58,131 nt of DNA from a virus (IMGVR_UViG_3300048011_000030:1-58131); one strand, 5' to 3'. Positions 1-53,632 are shown, numbered from the stretch's first letter. Notes: generated by a model not told the origin, from the letters alone. Numbers and translations are program-made.

Positions 1-127
1 AACTTAAATTTTTAGGGCGTCCCTCCGGGGACGTCCCGCCTAGTAGGAGATACGAACATGGCAATTAAAATCGCAGGTACTACCGTTATAGACGACAGCC
101 GGAATATTAATATACAAACGGTTCAAG
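1..127 (+). repeat. 127-bp exact repeat of 57357..57483 (circularisation/assembly overlap)
   Basis: Identical base for base with 57357-57483, diverging at 128 (c) vs 57484 (t); 127 is a common assembler k-mer length. Confidence 0.95.
15..36 (+). other. GC-rich intergenic hairpin upstream of tail fibre (copy at 57371..57392)
   Basis: gggcgtccc-tccg-gggacgtcc, 9-bp stem with one G.T; no downstream T-tract, so not clearly an intrinsic terminator. Confidence 0.6.
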
Positions 128-3100
128 CAGAGGGCGGTAGCTTTACTTCAGGCGTAGATACAAACACTACTTCTGCATTAGTTGTCAATAAAGGAGATCA
201 AATCCTTGTTGATGATGGTAACTATTTACGTAACCTAATAAAGCAGGCCACAGGCAGTGACATTGAAATAGGTCAAACTGGTACATCCCTAATCACAGGT
301 ATTAACCTAATTCCAGGTAGTAGTGGCGGTAAAGCAAAGGTAACGGGCGTAGAGATTATTACTAAAGCAGGTAGTGGTCTAACTAAATCAAATGACACAC
401 TATCTCACGCTGACACATCTAGCCAAGCATCTGTGGACAACTCTAATGGCACAGTTATTCAAGATATTACTCTTGATGGGTATGGGCATATTACAAGTCT
501 GGCATCTGTTGACCTAGATAGCCGTTTTGTGAATATCACTGGCGATACTATGACGGGTGATTTGACTATTTCTTCTGCATCTCCTGAGATCAAACTAGTA
601 GATACTAATGGTTTTACTGATTCTGATGACAGAATGATCTTCCGTGCAGCCGATAACAATCTGCTGTGGCAGTGGTTTGATAACAGCGCCTCTTCCACCA
701 CTACATTGATGACACTTAACAATGTAGGTCAGCTTACTTTAGGCTCTAACACAGTATTTCACGATGGCTACCACCCCAATGCTGACGACGCAGATACTCT
801 GGACGGACAACACGGGAGTTACTATACAGGCTATACTGATACAGCTATTGCTAACTTGGTAGACAGTTCTCCTGGCACTCTAAACACTTTAAACGAGTTA
901 GCCGCAGCATTAAATGATGATGCTAACTTCTCTACTACTATAACTGATAGTATTGCGCTTAAACTACCACTAGCTGGCGGTACTATGACAGGTGACTTGA
1001 ATATGGGTGACAACAATGTCGTTGACATTGGTAAACTTAACTTCAACAACCACGAAGGTACTGACTACGGCGTAACTGGCGATGTTATGTTTGACGAGAA
1101 CTTTTATGGTGACACAGAGTATGGTTCTAATACCATCTGGTCTGGTGGTGAAGGTGGCGGTCTAGCTGTTCGTAACGAAGACGGTTGGGGTCGTATTATC
1201 ACTGACCGTAATATGCCATGGCTCACCGCGACCTTTCATGGTCTAAAGGTAGGCTCTAATACAGCCTTCCACGATGGCTACCACCCCAACGCAGACAAAT
1301 GGACTACCTCTAGAACACTGTCACTCTCTGGTGATGCTTCTGGCAGTGTAAGCTGGGATGGTTCAGCCAATGCTACTCTGAGTGTTACGGTTGCTGACAA
1401 CAGTCATGATCACGAATGGATTAACAGGGATAGCCCTAGTGACACGCCTGACTACGCACTTCAATATCTAAACACAAATGGTGTAACAACAGACAGCCCA
1501 ACAACAGACTGGTACAATATTATTCGTATGGGGCATGGTAACCCAAACACGTATTTTAACAATACCTTAGCTATGGCGATGACGGGTTCTAATGTCGGGG
1601 CTTTGTATGGTAGAACCAGAAGTAATGGCTCGGCAGGTTCTTGGAACCGTTTCTTTGCTGACAACTACCACCCTAATGCTGACAAGTGGACTACCGCTAG
1701 AACGCATACGGTGACACTGACGGGCGACGTCACAGGCACGGCGTCTCAGAGCGTTGACGGCACAGGTAACAAAACGTGGTCAATCAGCACAAACGTAGGT
1801 GACGCTGATACCGTTGATGGATACCATGGCAGTCGTTTCTTCCGTAGGCAGACAAAAACTAATGCTACAGTAGGTGCTGGCTGGATGACAGTTGCGACCT
1901 GTACCAGTGGTCGCCATTCAGGCGAGGTTATTGTTACAGACGCAGACAGTGGCGACCACGCCTATATCCGTATTGCTTGGATGCGGTCTTATGTAGACAG
2001 CAACTTCACAGTTATAAACACAGGTGGTCACGCAAACCGCATTACAGGTGCAAGGGTTCTATACCAGACATCTGATAATACATATGGCGTGAAGCTCTTA
2101 CAGGTCTATGTCACCACATCCTCTAACTATGAGGTAAATGTGTATGAGCTTGGCGATATTGCAGACTATGGTGTTCCAACAGCGGTTACTCCTGTAATTG
2201 AGAATTCCAAAACAGGCTATGCGGTGCATGGAAATGAACTCCTAGACCTAGATACTTACGGGTTCTCTGCTGAAGAAGGTGTCCAAGCTGGAGGTTTGAT
2301 AAGATCGGGATCGGGGTTTAAGGTAGGCTCCGACGATGTTTGGCACCAAGGAAACGATGGTTCAGGCTCAGGCTTAGATGCTGACCTGTTGGATGGTGTG
2401 CAGGGTAGTAGCTACCTACGAAGTGATGCAAGTGATAGCCACTCAGGTACTTTGACCCTTGATGTTGTTCAAGTTGGTAACGAGCTTAGACTGCCTAATA
2501 ATACAAGTTTAACAGATGTAAGTTTAACAGGTACATCTGACCAAGACACAGGCTTTAACTGGTCTGGCTCTAATGCTGTTAACTATGTTTCAGGGGGTGT
2601 GTTAAAGTACAACTTAAACGATGTATGGCACTCAGATAATGACGGTTCAGGCTCCGGCCTAGATGCTGATCTGCTGGATGGTGTACAGGGTAGTAGTTAC
2701 TTACGTAGTGATGCTAGTGACACCTTTACTACACTTTCGGGCACACAGCTTAACCTTGGCTCACAGGTACAGTTACAGGAAAGTACTGACCGTGCAGACT
2801 TACTACAGATCACATCGTCAACTTCTGGATGGGCTGGCTTGCAGATACGCAATAGCTCAAACGAGGGCCGCTGGTCATTTATGACTGATGGCGCAACGGC
2901 TGGTTTTTATGATGATGAAAACAACGAATGGGCTGTGCAGATGGCGGAGAACGGTGGAGTTACGCTCTACCACAATAATGTCGCTAACTTCACCACAGGT
3001 GCGACCTACATGGAAATGGCTCGCAACCTAGACATGAATAACTATGACATCCGCGGCGTAGATCAAATCTTCCACCACGGTGACACAAATACATACATGC

Positions 3101-4299
3101 AGTTCCACGCAGCAGACCAGTGGCGAGTTGTAACTGGTGGTTCAGAACGCTTAGAAGTAAACAACTCACAGATTACTTCTACTGAGCCTATTCATGCACC
3201 TAGCTTTCATGGTAGTGGCTCTAGTTTAACAGGTGTCGTGTTAAATTCTGGCGACACTATGACTGGGCCTCTAGTCATTGATACAGACAACAACTCTGGT
3301 GGCGGCTTACGGCTTACGGTAAACCAAACAAGCCCTAACCAAGACTTTTACTTTGCTCAAGAAATAGTTACTAACCTTACGGGCTCAACTGCTACCACTG
3401 GTGACAGAGAGCAAGGAGGTATATATCTAGACCTCAACAGTACAGCTACAGGTGGTGATATTAGCAATGAACACCGTGTTTATGGTGCTTATCTTGACGT
3501 ATATTCTACTGGCGATGCTGATTTAGTGTGTGGCGTTTACGCTCCTACTTACGCTGCACCAACCGAAGGAACTACTGGTCAGGTTATGGGTGGTTACTTT
3601 CTTGCATCAGACTACGGTGGTGCAGGTAATGTTACTTGGGTGAGAGGAATTGACGTAAGGGCACAGGCTGATAACAGCGGTTCTTCCCCTGCTATTGTGG
3701 AAGGTGGAAATTTTGAAGTCAGGGTCCTTAGTGACGCTGATAGTGTAGGTCAAATTTATGGCGTTAAAAGCAAGATTAAGTTTGATAGTGGAGGGGGGAC
3801 AAAACAATCCACCAGCAACCCCAGTTATGCCTTTCATGCTAGATACGAAAACAGCACTGGAGTATCACAAGGGAATAATAGTTACTTGTACTACGGCTCA
3901 GACTCCGGCGTGAGAAGTCCAAATGCTTACGGGGTTTTTATTTCAGGTGATTTAGATAACTACTTTGGGGGTAAAGTAACTGCGAATAGCTTTGTTGGTG
4001 ATGGCTCTGCTTTAACTAATTTGCCTTCAGGCTCAACAACCTACGGTGCTGTCGGGACTTATGCCTATCTTTGGAGAGACAATGCAGGAACAGTGCTTGG
4101 TTCAACACACGCTGGATCAACTTTGTTTTATGCTGTAACTAATGATGATAATACCACTGGCGCGGCAGCTAATGCCTATAAGGGGACTGGGATAGTACGT
4201 TCTTCTATTAGCCCCTCTGGCACTTGGCAAGCTATGGGTAGTGCGGGAACATACTCTACAGCTTACGGGCAAGCAACACTATATGTGAGGATATCATAA
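58..4299 (+). CDS. Long modular tail fibre / receptor-binding protein (1413 aa)
   Basis: RBS aggaga; Gly/Ser/Thr/Asp-rich; repeats FHDGYHPNAD(KWTT), GSGSGLDADLLDG, GDTMTG, TLNTLNELAAAL typical of marine phage fibres; followed by a chaperone-like gene. Confidence 0.88.
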   Translation: MAIKIAGTTVIDDSRNINIQTVQAEGGSFTSGVDTNTTSALVVNKGDQILVDDGNYLRNLIKQATGSDIEIGQTGTSLITGINLIPGSSGGKAKVTGVEIITKAGSGLTKSNDTLSHADTSSQASVDNSNGTVIQDITLDGYGHITSLASVDLDSRFVNITGDTMTGDLTISSASPEIKLVDTNGFTDSDDRMIFRAADNNLLWQWFDNSASSTTTLMTLNNVGQLTLGSNTVFHDGYHPNADDADTLDGQHGSYYTGYTDTAIANLVDSSPGTLNTLNELAAALNDDANFSTTITDSIALKLPLAGGTMTGDLNMGDNNVVDIGKLNFNNHEGTDYGVTGDVMFDENFYGDTEYGSNTIWSGGEGGGLAVRNEDGWGRIITDRNMPWLTATFHGLKVGSNTAFHDGYHPNADKWTTSRTLSLSGDASGSVSWDGSANATLSVTVADNSHDHEWINRDSPSDTPDYALQYLNTNGVTTDSPTTDWYNIIRMGHGNPNTYFNNTLAMAMTGSNVGALYGRTRSNGSAGSWNRFFADNYHPNADKWTTARTHTVTLTGDVTGTASQSVDGTGNKTWSISTNVGDADTVDGYHGSRFFRRQTKTNATVGAGWMTVATCTSGRHSGEVIVTDADSGDHAYIRIAWMRSYVDSNFTVINTGGHANRITGARVLYQTSDNTYGVKLLQVYVTTSSNYEVNVYELGDIADYGVPTAVTPVIENSKTGYAVHGNELLDLDTYGFSAEEGVQAGGLIRSGSGFKVGSDDVWHQGNDGSGSGLDADLLDGVQGSSYLRSDASDSHSGTLTLDVVQVGNELRLPNNTSLTDVSLTGTSDQDTGFNWSGSNAVNYVSGGVLKYNLNDVWHSDNDGSGSGLDADLLDGVQGSSYLRSDASDTFTTLSGTQLNLGSQVQLQESTDRADLLQITSSTSGWAGLQIRNSSNEGRWSFMTDGATAGFYDDENNEWAVQMAENGGVTLYHNNVANFTTGATYMEMARNLDMNNYDIRGVDQIFHHGDTNTYMQFHAADQWRVVTGGSERLEVNNSQITSTEPIHAPSFHGSGSSLTGVVLNSGDTMTGPLVIDTDNNSGGGLRLTVNQTSPNQDFYFAQEIVTNLTGSTATTGDREQGGIYLDLNSTATGGDISNEHRVYGAYLDVYSTGDADLVCGVYAPTYAAPTEGTTGQVMGGYFLASDYGGAGNVTWVRGIDVRAQADNSGSSPAIVEGGNFEVRVLSDADSVGQIYGVKSKIKFDSGGGTKQSTSNPSYAFHARYENSTGVSQGNNSYLYYGSDSGVRSPNAYGVFISGDLDNYFGGKVTANSFVGDGSALTNLPSGSTTYGAVGTYAYLWRDNAGTVLGSTHAGSTLFYAVTNDDNTTGAAANAYKGTGIVRSSISPSGTWQAMGSAGTYSTAYGQATLYVRIS

Positions 4300-4709
4300 T
4301 GAGCATTACAATAATAGAAGCCCGCAATGCGGCATCACTTCAAGCTGACAACCTTCGTATGGATGTAGAGATTAACCACCCACAGCACGGCTGGATACCC
4401 TACACACTAGACTCCGCTGATACGGACACAACCATAGACAACGATGCAGTCATGGCTCTGATTGGTACAGACTTTACAGCATATGTTGCACCTACTCAAG
4501 CAGAGTTAGATGCAGCGGCAGCGGCAGATGTCCGTGCTGATCGAGATGGACGCCTACTTGAAGTAGATGCTATTGCAGGTAATGCACTTCGCTGGGCTGC
4601 ACTTGATGCTGACACACAGGCAGCATGGGCCACATACCGCCAAGCACTCTTAGATGTACCACAGCAAGAGGGCTTTCCTGACAATGTTACGTGGCCTACT
4701 AAACCTTAA
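4299..4709 (+). CDS. Tail fibre assembly chaperone
   Basis: C-terminal WATYRQALLDVPQQEGFPDNVTWPTKP motif; translationally coupled (TAATG) to the fibre gene. Confidence 0.82.
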   Translation: MSITIIEARNAASLQADNLRMDVEINHPQHGWIPYTLDSADTDTTIDNDAVMALIGTDFTAYVAPTQAELDAAAAADVRADRDGRLLEVDAIAGNALRWAALDADTQAAWATYRQALLDVPQQEGFPDNVTWPTKP

Positions 4710-5111: not shown

Positions 5112-6866
5112 ATGCGCAACATTACTTATGAGGGTCCATCTACTCCCTTGTCTCAAGAATTAGATGAAATGAAGTACAGACAAAAGGGAGAGACCTTTGA
5201 TGGTAAAGTTAAGCGCATTGCACGATCATTGTGTGATAGTGTGGAACACCAATGGATTCTAGAAGACATCATTGGTCTACAACGATTCCTTCCAGCTGGT
5301 AGAGTACAGTCTGCGATGGGTGCAGGTAAGCTTGTTACTGCTTACAACTGTTTTGTATCAGGTGATATTAAAGATAGTATGGATTCTATTATGGATCGTG
5401 CTAAAGAAGCAGCAGAAACAATGCGAAGAGGAGGTGGTATAGGTTATGATTTCTCTAAAGTACGCCCTAGAGGTACTCAAATCAAGTCATTGGAGAGCCA
5501 AGCCAGTGGGCCTATCTCTTTTATGTCTATCTTTGACGCAGTATGTCAAACAATTAGTAGTTCCGGTCATAGGCGCGGGGCGCAAATGGGCGTACTCCGT
5601 ATTGACCATCCGGATATCGTTGATTTCATTACTGCTAAACGTAATTCTGATAAGCTTACTGGTTTCAACATATCGCTAGGAATTACTGATAAGTTTATGG
5701 AAGCTCTTACTAAAGAAGATGACAGTTTTGATTTAGTGTTTGATGGCATTGTACATGAAACAGTCTCTGCAAAGGAAATCTGGGATTTAGCAATGGAGTC
5801 TACATGGGATTGGGCTGAGCCTGGTGTTCTATTTGTTGATCGTATTCAAGAGATGAATAATCTATACTACTGTGAGGACATTAGTGCTACTAACCCATGT
5901 GGTGAACAGCCCTTGCCTCCTTATGGTGCTTGCTTACTAGGCTCTTTTAACTGCACTAAATACACAATTAAAAATAAAAATGGTAAATACACATTCGACT
6001 TTGCTCAATTTAAAGAAGACATCCCACACGTTGTTCGTGCTATGGATAACGTTGTTGATCGTACTATCTACCCACTTCGGGAGCAAGAAGATGAAGCAAA
6101 GAATAAGCGGAGAATGGGACTCGGCGTTACAGGTCTTGCTAATGCAGGCGAGATGCTTGGATTCGAGTATGGTTCTAAGCCGTTCCTGCGATGGATGGAA
6201 AAAGTCTTTGCATGTCTTAGAGACAACACTTACTACGCCTCAGCAAAACTTGCAGAAGAAAAAGGAGCATTCCCCCTGTATCGTGAAGATTACCTAAAGG
6301 GTAACTTCATCCGTACACTTCCAGCATTTGTACAAAAGGAGATCCGAAAGCATGGTATTAGGAACAGTCACCTCACGTCTATTGCACCTACTGGGACAAT
6401 CTCCCTTGTGGCGGATAACATCAGTGGTGGAATCGAACCAGTCTTTTCACATTCATATGAGCGTACCATCCAGACTTTTGACGGTCCACGCTATGAGGAC
6501 GTTAAGGACTACGCCTTTGCACGAGGAGTTGAAGGACGAAAGGCAGATGACATTTCAGTTCATGAACACTTAGCTGTCCTTACTTTGGCTCAACACTACG
6601 TTGACAGTGCTTGCTCTAAAACTTGTAATGTGGGAGATGATGTTAGTTACGATGATTTCAAACGTGTTTACGAAACGGCATGGAAAGAGGGAGCCAAGGG
6701 CTGTACCACATTTAGGATCTCTGGAAAACGCTACGGAATCTTCAATGAGACCGTGGAAAAAGAAACGGAGATTGAGGGCCAGGTTGAAGGTATTACAGAG
6801 ACGGACGGAGCGAAAGCGGAGGCGTGTTTTTTTGACCCGAATACTGGGCAGCGCGAGTGCTCGTGA
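5112..6866 (+). CDS. nrdJ: Ribonucleotide reductase, class II (adenosylcobalamin-dependent)
   Basis: YNCFV, RRGAQM, TNPCGEQ, IAPTGTIS, C-terminal Cys pair; no NrdB beta subunit recognised in the genome. Confidence 0.88.
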   Translation: MRNITYEGPSTPLSQELDEMKYRQKGETFDGKVKRIARSLCDSVEHQWILEDIIGLQRFLPAGRVQSAMGAGKLVTAYNCFVSGDIKDSMDSIMDRAKEAAETMRRGGGIGYDFSKVRPRGTQIKSLESQASGPISFMSIFDAVCQTISSSGHRRGAQMGVLRIDHPDIVDFITAKRNSDKLTGFNISLGITDKFMEALTKEDDSFDLVFDGIVHETVSAKEIWDLAMESTWDWAEPGVLFVDRIQEMNNLYYCEDISATNPCGEQPLPPYGACLLGSFNCTKYTIKNKNGKYTFDFAQFKEDIPHVVRAMDNVVDRTIYPLREQEDEAKNKRRMGLGVTGLANAGEMLGFEYGSKPFLRWMEKVFACLRDNTYYASAKLAEEKGAFPLYREDYLKGNFIRTLPAFVQKEIRKHGIRNSHLTSIAPTGTISLVADNISGGIEPVFSHSYERTIQTFDGPRYEDVKDYAFARGVEGRKADDISVHEHLAVLTLAQHYVDSACSKTCNVGDDVSYDDFKRVYETAWKEGAKGCTTFRISGKRYGIFNETVEKETEIEGQVEGITETDGAKAEACFFDPNTGQRECS

Positions 6867-6893: not shown

Positions 6894-8648
6894 ATGCCAC
6901 AACAGATTATACCAATCACAGATCTAGCATCAGCAGGTCTTGTGCAAGATACTCCTGCAGTATCGCTACCACCTAATGTCTTTTCAGATGTACACAATGT
7001 TCGCTTTAGGGATGGGGCTGTTAAACGGTTCCCATCTGATGTTGATAAGCTAACATCACTTACAAACGTTGTGTACGTTGCGTACTGGCCTTCAACACTT
7101 GGAGATCGATATGTAGTTATTACAGACAACGGATCTAATACAGTGTTCACAGTATACAACGATAGTTTCTCTGTTGTATCAGCACAAGGTGGTACTAACA
7201 CTGGGGTAACTGGTGGTAGCTGGCAACATACTTTGTTTAATGGTGGTTATCATATTATTTTTAACAATGGTAACTCTACACCTGTCTTCTTGCAAGATGA
7301 TCTGGTGGGTGTTACACCTTTACCTGGATGGGATTCCTATGCAGTTGAGGAAGAGATTACTTCTTTTGAACATGATGGTTCTTCTGGATCTACTGAGATC
7401 AAGAACACGGTGCTGGTAAATCCAGGTGCGGGTAATACCATCTCAATTAAGATAACTGCAATACCTCGGAACACATCTAGCCCAATCCACACAGAGACAG
7501 TCACTGTTGACTCATCCGGAGTTGTATCACCAGATGCCACATTGGCAGACATTGGAACGATTACACAAGTTGACTTTAGTAATAATAAATTCTTCTTTGT
7601 ACCTGAGACATCTTCAGGAGGTTCTGTATATAAGGTGTCTGTAACTACTATCCCAATCACAGCAGTAACAGCAGGTGTTGTAAGGTCTTATGGAAACCTC
7701 TTAGTTGCAGGTAACCTAAAAGAAACGGGTGGTCGTACACTCACAGGCACCATACGTACCTCTGATGTTGCTGGGCCAGGCGCTATCCCTGAGAATTGGA
7801 ACCCCTTTAAGAATGGTGCTAATACAGCAGATGAGTTTATCTTAGCAGCTACAGGAACTATTAAAGACATGGAGGAGCTTCAAGGAGTTCTCTATGTATA
7901 CACAGATTCTTCTATACACTCTGTTCAACAAACCGGATCACCTTTCGTACCATTCCAAATATCACCAGTAACAAATAACTATGGAGTTAATAATACAGGT
8001 GGTGTTATAGAGGTAGATGGTAAACATATTGTATATGGAAGTAACGACTGCTACGTATTCAGTGGTCATCCAGGATCCATATCTTCAATAGCTGATGGTA
8101 GGGTTAGGGGTTTCTTTAGGAATAACACTAATATTAAAGCTGTTAGATTTAATAAATATGATGAGGTTTGGTTCTGGTCTAGTACAACTGTGTATGTGTG
8201 GAACTATCGTAATAATGTGTGGACTAAACGAGACTTACCTACAGGTACAAACTCGATGTCTGCTATTAGAGGAGACCTTCTTCTTTCAGCACCTACAAAA
8301 CTTGTTGGTGTAGATGGAAGTTCATTCCTATCAGGGGCTGTACTAGAGCGTAAACGCATGGCAATCACCCCTGAGTTTGACACTGAGAGTGTGTCGGGTA
8401 TGGTTCTGTTGTTTGATGGATCTTCTAAAGCCAATATTAAGTATGATGGTGTAGATAAGGTTGGGGAGGCAGTTGATTTTACAACTAGACCTGCAATACC
8501 TTTTGATACTACCCTAGATTATAAAGCGGATGTTAGGATTAATGGTCGCTTCTTAAACTACAGGATTGAAAGCCAGTCAAATGAAACAACCCTTGATTGG
8601 AATCTCACAGGATATCAAATTCAAATAAGTAAGGGAGGTCGCAGGTAA
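6894..8648 (+). CDS. Tail nozzle / tubular protein B (P22 gp10-like stabilisation protein)
   Basis: Beta-rich 584 aa; N-terminal GLVQDTP...HNVRFRDG pattern; position before internal virion genes. Confidence 0.65.
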   Translation: MPQQIIPITDLASAGLVQDTPAVSLPPNVFSDVHNVRFRDGAVKRFPSDVDKLTSLTNVVYVAYWPSTLGDRYVVITDNGSNTVFTVYNDSFSVVSAQGGTNTGVTGGSWQHTLFNGGYHIIFNNGNSTPVFLQDDLVGVTPLPGWDSYAVEEEITSFEHDGSSGSTEIKNTVLVNPGAGNTISIKITAIPRNTSSPIHTETVTVDSSGVVSPDATLADIGTITQVDFSNNKFFFVPETSSGGSVYKVSVTTIPITAVTAGVVRSYGNLLVAGNLKETGGRTLTGTIRTSDVAGPGAIPENWNPFKNGANTADEFILAATGTIKDMEELQGVLYVYTDSSIHSVQQTGSPFVPFQISPVTNNYGVNNTGGVIEVDGKHIVYGSNDCYVFSGHPGSISSIADGRVRGFFRNNTNIKAVRFNKYDEVWFWSSTTVYVWNYRNNVWTKRDLPTGTNSMSAIRGDLLLSAPTKLVGVDGSSFLSGAVLERKRMAITPEFDTESVSGMVLLFDGSSKANIKYDGVDKVGEAVDFTTRPAIPFDTTLDYKADVRINGRFLNYRIESQSNETTLDWNLTGYQIQISKGGRR

Positions 8649-9436
8649 TGTCTATTATCCGACCACCCTATACCGGAGACCCTGTTTTAGATTCTTGGAC
8701 AAATCAAATAACACAAGCCCTTAATATGGGACTCCTACCAGGTGTTAACGCAAGTGGTGCTGGAATAGGTGGGGGTACGGGGTCAGATGGTGCCAATGGT
8801 AACATAACTCTGTTCCTATACAAACGCACAGCTAATGACACTGTTCCACCTGCACCTAGTTTTGTGACTTATGACTACTCCAACTTGGATAATGTAACAA
8901 TAACATCAAACAATGGGTGGACAGGGACTGTACCATCAGATGATGCTAGTTACCTATGGGTTACATTTAGGTATGTGTCTGAAACTGAGGGTACCATAAC
9001 GAGTTCGAACACTTGGCAAACCCCCGTTATTCTTTCACAGGATGGGTCTTCTGCTTTGAGTGTATATATAACTACAGACTCTGGGACGGTGTTTAAGAAT
9101 GCCGTGGGTACCCCAAAGACATTAACGGCTAATGTTAATCTTGGAGGTGTAACCCCAACAACTACAGACTATAATGGTTATGATTATGACTGGACCTATG
9201 AAGGTAATACTGTTTGCCTAACCAATGATGGGAGTAGGACTGTCCTCTCAACCAACGGGGTACCTAATACCGTAAATGGTTCTGGAGTTTGTGCCATTGG
9301 TGTTCCAGCAAACTCAGAAGATTCGGCTGCGATAACTGCATCTTTAAACACAGGAGTTCTTAGACGTATTGTGCTAGGTCCTGAAGATGTAACAACACAA
9401 GTGAGATTAGCAGTTTCTGTTAAAATAGGAGAATAA
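8648..9436 (+). CDS. Virion appendage protein A (C-terminal Ig-like domain)
   Basis: Beta-rich; C-terminal ~130 aa paralogous to the C-terminus of the next ORF (SGTVFKN..G..KTLTANV...EDVTTQ). Confidence 0.7.
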   Translation: MSIIRPPYTGDPVLDSWTNQITQALNMGLLPGVNASGAGIGGGTGSDGANGNITLFLYKRTANDTVPPAPSFVTYDYSNLDNVTITSNNGWTGTVPSDDASYLWVTFRYVSETEGTITSSNTWQTPVILSQDGSSALSVYITTDSGTVFKNAVGTPKTLTANVNLGGVTPTTTDYNGYDYDWTYEGNTVCLTNDGSRTVLSTNGVPNTVNGSGVCAIGVPANSEDSAAITASLNTGVLRRIVLGPEDVTTQVRLAVSVKIGE

Positions 9437-9437
9437 T

Positions 9438-10571
9438 ATGGCACGGGTAGCCTCTAATGAAATTACAATTACCGATATTTCGGACGGTACAAATCCGATT
9501 ACAGCGTTCACAACTAACGCTAACCACACATTTGCTGCTGCAGCTAATGGTACAGTCTCTAACGTTGCTGGATTTACATCTACCTTAATTGTATTCGTAG
9601 GTCAAACACAAGCATCTTATGTCGCTACCATTGGCTCTACACCAGAAACATTTTCAATCACCAATATAGCATACGTAGGTTCATCAACTGGTTGGGGAAC
9701 CCCATCTAACGCTAGTGGTACTATTACAATCCCATCTGTTTCAGCAACAGCTGCAATCAGTGTCACTCTACGACTAACATTCAGTGTGGTGCCAACATCT
9801 ACAACAACACCTGTTACTGGTCTTACACAAGACATTACTTTGTCTGTTGTTAAAGAGGGGGCTGGTGGTCAGGTTATTGAGATTGTACCATCATCACAGA
9901 CCTTCTTTGCGAACTCCTCAGGTACTCTTAATGCTAGTCAGACTAATATTATTTTAGGTATTGAGTCTCAAGGTACTACAGGTAACATCACATTAGCTAC
10001 TTCTATTAACGGTGCTGCATTCACTACTCAAACCACTACGAGCACTGCTCAAGGTGGTATTGCTTTCTACGATGCTGATACTTCGGGTACTGTGGAAACT
10101 ACAGGTACCTTCCCAGTTACACAGAATGGTATTGCTCGCCTAGCTATTGCTCAAACAAACTTAGGGAATACTGGTAATACGTTAACAGTTAAAGTAACAG
10201 GTGCCACTGGTGGTTCAGATGCTCTTACTGTGTTTAAAGTTCAAGAAGGTGCGGCTGGTACTGGTGCTATTATCGTGTCGGTAACATCTAGTGACGGGAC
10301 GGTGTTTAAAAATAGTGCAGGAACAGCTAAGACTTTGACAGCTAATGTAACAGATGTTGATACGGGTGTTGCACCAAGCACAAGTATAACATACACCTGG
10401 ACACGGGCCAATGGTGCAGCAGTTCGTGTTACCTCCATATCTGATCGGACTGTCATTTCAACAGGTGGTGTGTTAGCCTCAGGTACAGGGTTTCCAGACA
10501 TTATTGTAGGGGTTGAAGATGTAACAACACAAGAGCGTTTCGGAGTCTCTGTAAGTGTGGCTGATACTTAA
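9438..10571 (+). CDS. Virion appendage protein B (Ig-like, Thr/Gly/Ser-rich)
   Basis: RBS aggaga; N-terminus shared with the next ORF, C-terminus shared with the previous ORF. Confidence 0.7.
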   Translation: MARVASNEITITDISDGTNPITAFTTNANHTFAAAANGTVSNVAGFTSTLIVFVGQTQASYVATIGSTPETFSITNIAYVGSSTGWGTPSNASGTITIPSVSATAAISVTLRLTFSVVPTSTTTPVTGLTQDITLSVVKEGAGGQVIEIVPSSQTFFANSSGTLNASQTNIILGIESQGTTGNITLATSINGAAFTTQTTTSTAQGGIAFYDADTSGTVETTGTFPVTQNGIARLAIAQTNLGNTGNTLTVKVTGATGGSDALTVFKVQEGAAGTGAIIVSVTSSDGTVFKNSAGTAKTLTANVTDVDTGVAPSTSITYTWTRANGAAVRVTSISDRTVISTGGVLASGTGFPDIIVGVEDVTTQERFGVSVSVADT

Positions 10572-10583
10572 AGGAGAATAGAG

Positions 10584-12551
10584 ATGCCAAGAGTAGGATC
10601 AGATGAAATTACAATAAAAAACATATCAGATGGAGACAGCTCTCGTACAGTCTATCTGTTTCAAAATGGAACAAGCTCCCCAACAGTTCCTTTAAACACT
10701 GCTGGGTTTGTAGCCTCTACGGGTGTTGCTAGTAGTACGGGATCTTGGAGCACAATAGCCACTGTCCCAGCATCTGGTAGTACACTATACGTAGCATCTC
10801 TTAGTCTTCGTCAACCTAACTCTACAGGAAACTGGGAAGCTGTTGGTAATTGGGAAGCTAATCCAGCCTCCTCGTCTGGAGCTGATGGATCCCCAGCCCC
10901 AAGGTTTGTTTCACGTAGGTTATATGCATCCTCATCTACAGGCACACCTGGTGCTCCATCTGCTATACTAACATGGTCAACCCTTGCACTGTCTAGTATC
11001 ACAGCGGGTACCCCATCAGCAACTTGGTCGGAGACTGCACCAACAGCCATTGCTACTTCAACCACTTTGGTTTACTTTTCTGATTTACTATTCATAGATG
11101 TAACAGGTATAGCTACAACCAGTTCAAATACTGGGAGTACTCCTAAAGAGGGGATATCTTTTTCAGGTCTTGTGACATTCAACAATGGTGACTTTGCACT
11201 TGATGGCACTGCTATAACATCTATAGATGGTGGTAATATAACTACAGGTTCTATTTCAGGTAGTCCTTCTGGGGTGAATCCCCCATCAGCAGGTAGTGCA
11301 CCCACTGGTACTGAAGATGGCACGTCTTTAAACCTAACTGATGGTAACCTTACTATTGGTAACTCAACTAACTATATCAGTTGGGATGGAACGGAACTTA
11401 AAGTCCAAGGGGAGATTGTCAACATTACAAAACCGCACTTAGCTGGACTAGCAGGTGATTGGTTTTGTATCTCAGATTCTGTCACAGACCTAAGCACTGT
11501 CCTTCCGTTTAGTCTGAACGGGGCAGGTCTGTACCGTATGATAATGGTAGGTGGTGGTGGTGGTGCCAGTGCAGCCTATACAAACATTTTTGGATACACA
11601 GGTGTTTCTGGTGGTGGTGCAGGTGCGTTAGCAGTGTGGACATTTTTATGGGATGGAACATCAGCTATCCGCGTGATCATCGGTCATGGTGGCGCTGGTA
11701 AAATTCACACCACAGATGGAAGTGGTGGTGGAGCATCGTCTTTTATGGTAGATGGGGTAACCACGATCACTACAAATGGTGGGGGTGGTGGAGACCGAGG
11801 TAACTCTATCTTTACACCAGGTGGTTCTGGCGGAGATATTACATTTGCTACAAACCCTGACCCTGGTATGTATGACCTTGAAACACGGTATGGTGGTCGT
11901 GGTGGTAACTCGACTGTCTCTGGTGGTAGTACATCTCATGGTAGTGCTGGCGGTGGTGGAGTTAACTTCCTTGGAGTTGGCAATAGTACAGACCAGACTA
12001 TTACCCGTGGCGGTGACTTTGTTGCTGCAACCTCAAATGATTCCGCTGCGACTGCTGGTGGTGGTCCACAAGGTAAAGGTGGTGACATCAACAGCATGGG
12101 AGGTGACCGCTTTTCAACCGCAGCTGTATACGCTGCTCAAGGTATTTCAAGTTCGTCTAGTACTAACGCAGGTATAACATATGAGCCTGTTGTGGGGAAT
12201 GTAATTTCTACCCCCTATTTAGGTTCTGCACCACTTGGTCGTACTTATGCTGGAACCACTGATGACGAAGGTGTTGGACCCCCCGATGCTTCAGGTATTT
12301 TGGGTGGTGGTGGTGTTCTCAGAACTACTGTGGGGACTACTGCGCAAGCGTCTAAGCAATCACATGCGCCTAGCGGTTTTTTATTTGGTGGTGGTGGTGG
12401 CGGATCAGCTGTTGCTCAGCTTGGTAATGAAGACCTTGCTGAAATAACAGGTGGTAATGGAGGAATCGGGGCTGGCGGCGGTGGTGGCTTCGGATTAACT
12501 TCACGTGGTGGTAATGGTGGTGGCGGAGCACTATTCGTACTCAGACTTTAG
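10584..12551 (+). CDS. Virion appendage protein C with glycine-rich C-terminal domain
   Basis: RBS aaggag; N-terminal RVGSDEITIKNISDG; many GGGGG runs in the C-terminal half, typical of phage Gly-rich receptor-binding domains. Confidence 0.72.
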   Translation: MPRVGSDEITIKNISDGDSSRTVYLFQNGTSSPTVPLNTAGFVASTGVASSTGSWSTIATVPASGSTLYVASLSLRQPNSTGNWEAVGNWEANPASSSGADGSPAPRFVSRRLYASSSTGTPGAPSAILTWSTLALSSITAGTPSATWSETAPTAIATSTTLVYFSDLLFIDVTGIATTSSNTGSTPKEGISFSGLVTFNNGDFALDGTAITSIDGGNITTGSISGSPSGVNPPSAGSAPTGTEDGTSLNLTDGNLTIGNSTNYISWDGTELKVQGEIVNITKPHLAGLAGDWFCISDSVTDLSTVLPFSLNGAGLYRMIMVGGGGGASAAYTNIFGYTGVSGGGAGALAVWTFLWDGTSAIRVIIGHGGAGKIHTTDGSGGGASSFMVDGVTTITTNGGGGGDRGNSIFTPGGSGGDITFATNPDPGMYDLETRYGGRGGNSTVSGGSTSHGSAGGGGVNFLGVGNSTDQTITRGGDFVAATSNDSAATAGGGPQGKGGDINSMGGDRFSTAAVYAAQGISSSSSTNAGITYEPVVGNVISTPYLGSAPLGRTYAGTTDDEGVGPPDASGILGGGGVLRTTVGTTAQASKQSHAPSGFLFGGGGGGSAVAQLGNEDLAEITGGNGGIGAGGGGGFGLTSRGGNGGGGALFVLRL

Positions 12552-12625
12552 AGGCAGTTGAATCTACTACTCACAAGATACCCTATTCTTTGACAAGTAT
12601 AGGAAGTTATAATGGAAAAACGTAA

Positions 12626-52738: not shown

Positions 52739-53632
52739 ATGGCAACATACGTAGAATTTGTAGGATCTGGTGACTTCACTGGTGATAACGCAGGGTTGAT
52801 TAGATCCTGGGCAAACAGAGATGTTTCTGTATTGTCTAACTCAGTGGTGACGCGGTGTTTTAATTACGCAGCAGATAAAGCTTACAGAACTCTACGTGTG
52901 CCACCACTAGAAATTACTAGGCTTTATGATGTAAATGGTACGCAAGAAGAAATTGATGCAGCAGGAGCATCAGGAGATTTACCAGATATTGGGCCAAGTG
53001 CTTATCAAGGTGGCAATGTACTCACTATGCCAACCCCCAAAGATTTAATTGATATTGTATTTATACGTAATGCTAACACAACAATTAAAAACCAAGGCAT
53101 TGTATATAACGAAAAAGTAGACGTTAGAACCTTTAATGATGGTTATAGTCAAACTAAAGATTTCAACTTTTATACCAGAATAGGAGACGAAATAAAACTT
53201 CACGGTAAGTTTGCTAGAGGAGATGTACTAGAAATTCATTACTACAGACGTTTACCCGCACTAGATGCTACTTACTCTGCTACTTACAATAACTGGAAAG
53301 CAGGACTAGGTACTTTAGATATCAGTGGCGTAGCAACAACTTACTCCGCTGCCGTAGATAAAACAGAAGCTTCTTTTGACACAAGGCTGGCAGAAGATTC
53401 TTCTTATTGGGTAGGTAATGAAGCAGCTCATTGGTTAAGAGATGAAAATGAAAGGATCGTTTTGTTTGGGGCACTGTTAGAGGTATCTATATATTTAAAT
53501 GATAATGAAGAAATACAAAAGTATCAAATATTATTTGATCAAGAGATATCAGAATTAAACAAAGAAGAGCTGATTCGTAAAACAAAAGGCGGCAACTTAG
53601 CAATGTCATTCGCATACGATAACTTGCTGTAG
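52739..53632 (+). CDS. Head-tail adaptor / tail tubular protein A
   Basis: IRSWANR..AYRTLRVP..EIHYYRRLPAL..HWLRD..VLFGAL pattern; position after the MCP. Confidence 0.7.
   Translation: MATYVEFVGSGDFTGDNAGLIRSWANRDVSVLSNSVVTRCFNYAADKAYRTLRVPPLEITRLYDVNGTQEEIDAAGASGDLPDIGPSAYQGGNVLTMPTPKDLIDIVFIRNANTTIKNQGIVYNEKVDVRTFNDGYSQTKDFNFYTRIGDEIKLHGKFARGDVLEIHYYRRLPALDATYSATYNNWKAGLGTLDISGVATTYSAAVDKTEASFDTRLAEDSSYWVGNEAAHWLRDENERIVLFGALLEVSIYLNDNEEIQKYQILFDQEISELNKEELIRKTKGGNLAMSFAYDNLL

Follow-up and report, generated by a model that had tools for sequence, protein, structure and literature searches.

Three consecutive genes in a viral DNA stretch of 58,131 nucleotides (IMGVR_UViG_3300048011_000030:1-58131, the whole of which is called the window here) raise the question of why two of their products stop right after the same domain and two of them begin with the same short peptide. 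The genes are called A, B and C. With a probability of roughly 65%, they are read here as segments of one tail fibre held together by noncovalent joints of inter-subunit beta-strand complementation, with a portable module boundary. A and B would each end in an immunoglobulin-like (Ig-like) domain without its last (G) strand, called the socket, and the first ~16 residues of B and C, called the plug, would supply the missing strand. The plug would run antiparallel to the last strand of the socket, beside its A' region, and the sandwich would be completed in trans. The joint between B and C was modelled, and by homology to it the plug of B is predicted to fill the socket of A. The segment order would be A-B-C with one B per chain. 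The features of the three genes are the following:

8648-9436, + strand: gene A, 262 amino acids (aa), putative proximal fibre segment, socket without plug, own ATG and ribosome-binding site (RBS)
9038..9433, + strand: socket domain of A, residues 131-262, identified by BLASTP to the end domain of B and by a hidden Markov model (HMM) of that domain, dom3 (E 2e-14)
9438-10571, + strand: gene B, 377 aa, putative middle segment comprising plug, two complete Ig-like domains and socket, own ATG and RBS
9438..9488, + strand: plug of B, residues 1-17, MARVASNEITITDISDG, conserved in 15 aligned homologues and appearing as strand E3-14 in the model of B
10251..10568, + strand: socket domain of B (dom3), residues 272-377, ending in ...ERFGVSVSVADT and then the stop codon
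10584-12551, + strand: gene C, 655 aa, putative distal segment comprising plug, two W...P-type beta domains, a fibre shaft motif and a glycine-rich tip
10584..10646, + strand: plug of C (residues 1-17, MPRVGSDEITIKNISDG) and four further codons, the conserved block preceding the recombination break
11255..12622, + strand: exchangeable distal tip of C and the spacer behind it, unaligned in contig L003

The end domains of A (residues 133-262) and B (residues 274-376) are homologous (BLASTP E 3e-14, 38% identity) and both proteins stop 3-4 residues past ...VSV, the Ig-like socket of A terminating after its F-like strand ...VRLAVSVKIGE. At the other end, B and C share 13 of their first 24 residues (E 2e-4 for that one comparison), being different at 5 of the 17 positions of the plug. 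No shared sequence was identified between A and C, and no donor motif was found at the N-terminus of A. This layout bears out the original prediction, made from the sequence of the window, that A and B end in one common domain and stop right after it, that B and C begin with one 17-residue peptide, and that A is an acceptor only, B a donor and acceptor, and C a donor only.

Each of the three open reading frames (ORFs) has a separate start, and the clear RBSs already claimed for B and C are joined by an equally recognisable one in A. The ATG of A overlaps the upstream stop (TAATG) with AAGGGAGG ~9 nucleotides upstream; that of B lies one base after the TAA of A with AGGAG ~6 nucleotides upstream; and that of C follows the TAA of B and four in-frame codons, with AAGGAG ~7 nucleotides upstream. 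Annotation of the three proteins is poor. Pfam gave no family for A, B or C at E up to 0.1, including no Pfam Ig family at threshold, and the PHROG scan of the three gave weak matches of the 'tail' category only, which in C were phrog_23593 (tail protein, residues 15-103) and, weakly, phrog_863 (residues 321-460). No match was found by blastn or tblastn with the region and with B against 50,697 phage records, and a scan with alignment A1 of 185,579 prokaryote species, one genome per species, found no relative.

The split layout was followed in viral contigs, a scan of which gave 47 loci where the identity of B goes from 99% down to ~32%. The set of B genes comprises 44 sources (43 loci and the window), with L001/L008, L002/L009 and L005/L010 being the same contigs, and the plug was recognised at the starts of the next ORFs by a loosened regular expression. 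The ORF after B starts with the plug peptide in 42 of the 42 readable cases, two loci ending too early to be read, and an ORF ending in the socket domain precedes B in 43 of the 44 sources, the exception being L012, which begins near the contig end. This co-occurrence of plug and socket across gene borders is far beyond chance. There is one B gene per locus, in every locus, with a length of 368-405 aa. The original prediction had considered that the stops could be sequence errors, or that homologues could be one fused ORF; stops, ATGs and Shine-Dalgarno sites are retained in all 44 sources, and this conservation of stops and layout shows that no error underlies the split.

The near-length search (207-660 aa) gave 24 homologues of B at 45-98% identity, all of 368-398 aa. 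In the 15 of them that were aligned with B, residues M1, R3, D13, D16 and G17 are invariant and all the proteins end just past the last strand. A profile search of 1.84 billion representatives, unbounded in length, gave 417 matches at E up to 0.001, comprising stand-alone proteins of ~350-410 aa that align to B end to end and giant proteins of 1000-5100 aa in which the first two domains of B (dom1 and dom2) occur internally, in up to 14 stretches. Among the loci, L051 2159-12634 is a single ORF of 3491 aa with B-like domains inside, so that the domain set is present there as one continuous giant fibre.

The third domain, dom3, follows a position rule. Its HMM gave 91 matches in 177 fetched proteins, with 86 of the 91 envelopes ending at most 12 residues from the C-terminus and three more being partial alignments of proteins that also end there, so the true exceptions are P0070 and P0113. 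Among the 53 proteins larger than 1000 aa, 48 lack dom3 and five have it, four at the very C-terminus and one (P0113) in tandem. The second copy of P0113 ends the protein; between the internal copy and this one lie a short loop and ...YTDTYTFQDKTD..., a stretch that by eye may be read as a natural covalent form of the missing strand. Two variants of B were identified in the same set: the residues behind the socket in P0070 look like a leucine-rich repeat, and in P0089 (1123 aa) the plug and dom1-2 lead into collagen-like repeats and an extended distal part, which stand in place of the socket.

Within B itself, the last strands of the internal domains are LTQDITLSVVKEG (strand 126-139) and SDALTVFKVQEG (strand 260-269), each running straight into the next domain, and the N-terminal peptide SNEITITDISDG has the same pattern. 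The third domain is without such a closing strand.

The AlphaFold2 (AF2) model of full-length B, with a predicted local distance difference test score (pLDDT) of 85.7 and a predicted template modelling score (pTM) of 0.41, comprises three beta domains on a string and an N-terminal strand at residues 3-14. Both dom1 and dom2 match Ig-like folds with Z values of 7-8.5, which are middling, and because the Ig matches of dom1 start at residues 16-20 the N-terminal strand is placed outside that domain. Foldseek with the whole model returned generic multi-Ig chains with low template modelling (TM) scores, and its top two, an SU10 virion chain and a CfaB pilin fusion, were given no weight. The socket domain was also folded in isolation, from an alignment of 19 such domains (A4, the socket of A included). 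In this form it shows six strands, the A' strand being absent (pLDDT 85.2, pTM 0.76), residues 289-291 being a strand in full-length B and not in isolated dom3, and the last strand being longer in full-length B. All of its fold matches are Ig domains (Z up to 6.2). The second best is domain 1 of RB49 Hoc (PDB 3shs; Z 6.1, root-mean-square deviation 2.5, 75 aligned residues, 29% identity), and several single-domain Ig targets keep ~9-15 unaligned C-terminal residues in comparison with dom3 (2le9, 5..78 of 93; 9kvu, 2..81 of 94). At model level, then, the acceptor is an Ig-like domain without a last strand, as had been proposed. A complete Ig domain formed by the C-terminal part alone, which the original prediction had named as a finding that would count against it, was not obtained; the isolated domain is predicted with confidence as an incomplete sandwich.

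The complex model combines residues 268-377 of B (alignment A1) and 1-105 of C (alignment A3, comprising 14 C-like N-termini from the loci). Its interaction prediction scores from aligned errors (ipSAE) were 0.82, 0.81 and 0.79, with a median of 0.81, and the best of the 3 controls reached 0.00. At least 96% of the contacts were common to the runs and the pLDDT of the partner was at least 79. The same ipSAE mark is reached by 116 of 157 solved complexes and by 2 of 215 mismatched pairs, counts which are approximate when own alignments are used. In the model the residues of C touching B are 1-16 only. The closest pairs (366:11, 368:9-10, 370:7, 371:6 and 373:4, B given first) are those of an antiparallel register with the last strand of B, and residues 11-13 of C also contact residues 289-290 of B. 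On the side of B the interface is formed by residues 276-284, 288-293, 298, 300, 302, 313, 357, 359 and 361-376. The plug of C is read as occupying, in this model, the canonical G-strand position beside F and A', in agreement with the expectation that a donor N-terminal strand would insert into an incomplete Ig groove. Searches of PDB sequences with A1 and A4 gave chance-level matches only; recall of a solved complex by the predictor is unlikely, because no solved sequence homologue exists.

The same joint was identified next to other types of tail genes. Around the relatives of two long socket-ending proteins resembling lambda-J-type tail tip proteins, 95 loci were fetched, with 703 ORFs of at least 100 aa. 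Only one of the 703 carries a terminal socket (L072 4980-9404, 1474 aa, Pfam Phage-tail_3). It is preceded by genes for Phage_min_tail, Phage_tail_L and JAB+NlpC/P60, and the ORF directly after it, of 773 aa, starts with MARKGIGSITISDISDG. A stricter regular expression for the plug matches 2 of the 703 ORFs, the other one being an unrelated minor tail protein. In the myovirus-type loci (L016 5308-6189, for example) the A-like socket protein begins with a domain resembling T4 gp9/10 (E 1.8e-6) and its gene sits among gp6-, wedge- and gp8-like baseplate genes. The socket thus closes anchor proteins of different kinds in three tail types, those of the window, the gpJ-type loci and the myovirus-type loci. 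Uncultured marine phages carry the module widely, next to podovirus-, myovirus- or lambda-like tail genes.

Closely related contigs break their alignment with the window inside gene C. Contig L002 is 99% identical over 6894-10646 and resumes at 11157; in L003 an identity of 99% extends to 11254, nothing aligns over 11255-12622 and the match returns at 12623; and in L005 and L006 (~89%) the alignment also ends at 10646. This position is codon 21 of C, right behind the plug. Homologues of C with the same N-terminal part differ distally, and two of them carry Peptidase_S74 (PF13884). In the preferred reading, recombination replaces the distal receptor-binding part and spares the plug-coding block ahead of it. 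Residues ~225-655 of C (11255-12548) are glycine-rich and belong to no family besides the weak phrog_863, with unrelated sequence at this place in L003.

These results have to be weighed against other explanations of the same layout. It is highly improbable that the three ORFs encode a single protein, with stops that are sequencing errors or are bypassed by read-through or frameshifting. As such a protein would have it, B and C share a frame, interrupted by no more than TAA and four codons, and A and B are one base apart (+1 frame from A to B); nevertheless, the conservation of stops, starts and Shine-Dalgarno sites in all sources argues against a fusion, as does the uniform size of the B homologues. 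Moreover, the coordinates place B and C in frame in L012, L015, L019, L021 and L035 and out of frame in L013, L026, L042 and L043. Because this frame relation varies among loci, read-through or frameshifting is not a conserved feature, and with the starts also conserved it was rejected as the mode of joining. It is rather unlikely, too, that the N-terminal peptide is conserved for some other reason, as a recombination or translation-initiation block or as a chaperone tag, with the segments joined otherwise or not joined. Conservation ends with the DNA coding for the plug, behind which the variable part begins, as expected of a recombination site, and the socket domain folds confidently alone in silico. 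However, the peptide is kept at the protein level in relatives whose B is only ~32-38% identical, its pattern equals that of the last strands of the internal domains of B, in three tail types plug and terminal socket are found together on either side of a gene border, and the contacts of the complex model use exactly the residues of the peptide.

Other alternatives accept the strand joint and concern the number of segments. B could be a self-polymerising spacer whose own plug fits its own socket, as the original prediction has it; fibres would then be A-(B)n-C, vary in length and carry C as a cap, in the manner of chaperone-usher pili. B is the only protein with both plug and socket, the plugs of B and C are nearly the same, and no clear discriminator between the sockets of A and B and no clear bar to B binding B were seen; the two sockets share 21 of 37 modelled interface positions, compared to 30 of 71 elsewhere, a difference too weak for or against pair specificity. 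The monomer model of B, too, has a confident N-terminal strand (pLDDT 85 in the first block) and an A' strand, which the isolated domain lacks; this may represent the plug of B docked in its own socket. Intramolecular closure of B as a general rule was rejected, as it would leave the socket of A and the plug of C unpaired. Against a polymer stands the single B gene of conserved length in each locus. In the myovirus-type clade, furthermore, the sockets of A and B and the plugs of B and C differ consistently, which fits specific pairs (for example ...LQLTINDKQED with MALRTATAAITLTDLADG and ...ISIRCNVTVTTP with MATIRASQSITFTDLYDA). To our knowledge phage fibres have defined lengths. Hints of a trimer in relatives also argue against a single-file polymer: the C of L013 has a collagen repeat at residues 17-67, directly behind the plug, and Peptidase_S74 marks trimeric fibres. 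Together with the collagen repeats of P0089 and the gp9/10-like domain, they suggest a three-chain fibre. Self-polymerisation of B is therefore held to be improbable. We likewise give little credit to a promiscuous portable connector, where B adds onto itself and any plug-bearing tip, even from a co-infecting phage of another tail type, fits any socket; if true, it would make a pilus-like, chaperone-free polymerising appendage on a virus.

The reading of A, B and C as strand-complemented segments of one fibre has its own difficulties. All the structural evidence is predicted, and general familiarity with Ig folds may lead the predictor to complete one. The complex model supports binding and, by the verdict of the tool itself, does not show it. 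The joint was modelled for B and C only, that between A and B resting on homology. The socket is confidently predicted alone and may be stable without a partner, in which case the peptide might be an edge addition and not a strand completing the core. The Z values of dom3, at most 6.2, are in a middling range that the comparison tool calls common. Order and stoichiometry are not fixed by the sequences, the plugs of B and C and the sockets of A and B being similar, and the 1:1:1 order is put forward as the probable arrangement. Finally, 12 of 73 B-sized proteins are without detectable plug, socket or both at the thresholds used, and P0070 (502 aa) has ~160 residues behind its socket domain.

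The window looks like the near-complete genome, of ~58 kb, of an uncultured marine podovirus. Its ORFs include a single-subunit RNA polymerase, primase/helicase, DNA polymerase, terminase, portal, scaffold protein and major head protein. The nearest cultured phage by the capsid protein is Roseobacter phage CRP-7 (56%), for which no virion proteomics was found in the literature search; hosts of its relatives are Rhodobacteraceae. The gene directly before A is the following:

6894..8648, + strand: virion structural protein, 584 aa, matching phrog_3287 'virion structural protein' (E 3.9e-46)

This protein has distant tblastn matches to 'particle proteins' of Pseudomonas podoviruses, and a homologue of it lies before the A-like gene in L013, L034 and L035. 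It may be the tail part carrying A, as a putative point of attachment.

A second fibre system was identified at 58-4709, comprising a protein of 1413 aa (58-4299) and a tail assembly chaperone of 136 aa (Phage_tail_APC). The first of them has PHROG matches to the distal subunit of long tail fibres and a Phage_T4_gp36 motif. An exact direct repeat of 127 bp is present at the contig start and near the contig end (1-127 and 57357-57483). Within it lie a stretch resembling a hairpin, an RBS and 23 opening codons (MAIKIAGTTVIDDSRNINIQTVQ), with which two different fibre genes begin, the one at 58-4299 and another running from 57414 to the end of the window, where it is still open. The repeat is either an assembly break at a variable fibre gene or the mark of two fibre cassettes with a common N-terminal attachment peptide. 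Between the two blocks of fibre genes lies a ribonucleotide reductase large subunit (5112-6866), an odd location for nucleotide metabolism. The ORF at 52739-53632 (297 aa) has a weak match to the SU10 adaptor family (E 9.8e-5), its 23.3 bits being under the Pfam cut-off of 27.

The closest known counterpart of the proposed joint is that of the chaperone-usher pili (Pap, Fim, Caf1), where an Ig-like subunit lacks its G strand and the N-terminal extension of the next subunit supplies a strand antiparallel to F. A missing G strand and an antiparallel donated N-terminal strand are seen here at model level, and the acceptor-only base, donor and acceptor middle and donor-only tip are also alike. In contrast, no sequence relationship was seen, and the Pfam and PHROG scans of 8 + 19 + 9 ORFs of the window, which did not include every small ORF, gave neither a PapD-like chaperone nor an usher. 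The phage fibre would be assembled in the cytoplasm of an infected cell, its socket is not a whole subunit but the end domain of a protein with several domains, and the fibre is probably three-chained. The major subunit of a pilus forms a homopolymer; the phage loci have one B gene each.

The long tail fibre of T4 is built by gp34-gp35-gp36-gp37 docking on gp9. The likeness lies in the consecutive genes encoding proximal-to-distal segments joined end to end noncovalently, as proposed here from gene order and the joint model, and in the gp9/10-like N-domain on the A-like protein of the myovirus-type relatives. The proposed joint differs in being a split Ig domain, and no homology to gp34, gp35, gp36 or gp37 was found in A, B or C by the Pfam and PHROG scans. 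With RB49 Hoc and the Ig-like domains of phages, dom1, dom2 and dom3 share a beta-sandwich of Ig topology according to their fold matches; the domains of Hoc are complete and covalently linked, whereas here the last strand would be encoded by the next gene. Exchangeable receptor-binding proteins based on adaptors, such as the N-domain of T7 gp17, the SP6/K1-5 adaptors, G7C gp63.1-gp66 and the CBA120 tailspikes, attach by folded N-terminal domains. In common with the present system, their N-terminal attachment part is conserved and the distal part is exchanged freely, with the recombination break behind the former, but here the attachment would be a single strand of ~16 residues. Contractile sheath subunits exchange strands between protomers by donated N- and C-terminal strands and are likewise a phage-related assembly held by donated strands; they form a helical lattice of protomers, with no fibre and no Ig fold missing a G strand (PMC13266070).

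No precedent for a strand-complemented joint in a phage fibre was identified in the full-text literature searched, although ~1.7 million PMC articles and most subscription journals lie outside it and a precedent may exist. Strand complementation is textbook pilus building and multi-segment fibres are textbook phage biology; a split Ig joint between fibre segments would combine both. The breakpoints behind the plug suggest a route by which phages swap their host-recognition tips, and a plug of 16 residues with a socket of ~105 residues would be a compact handle for attaching new receptor-binding parts to phage tails.

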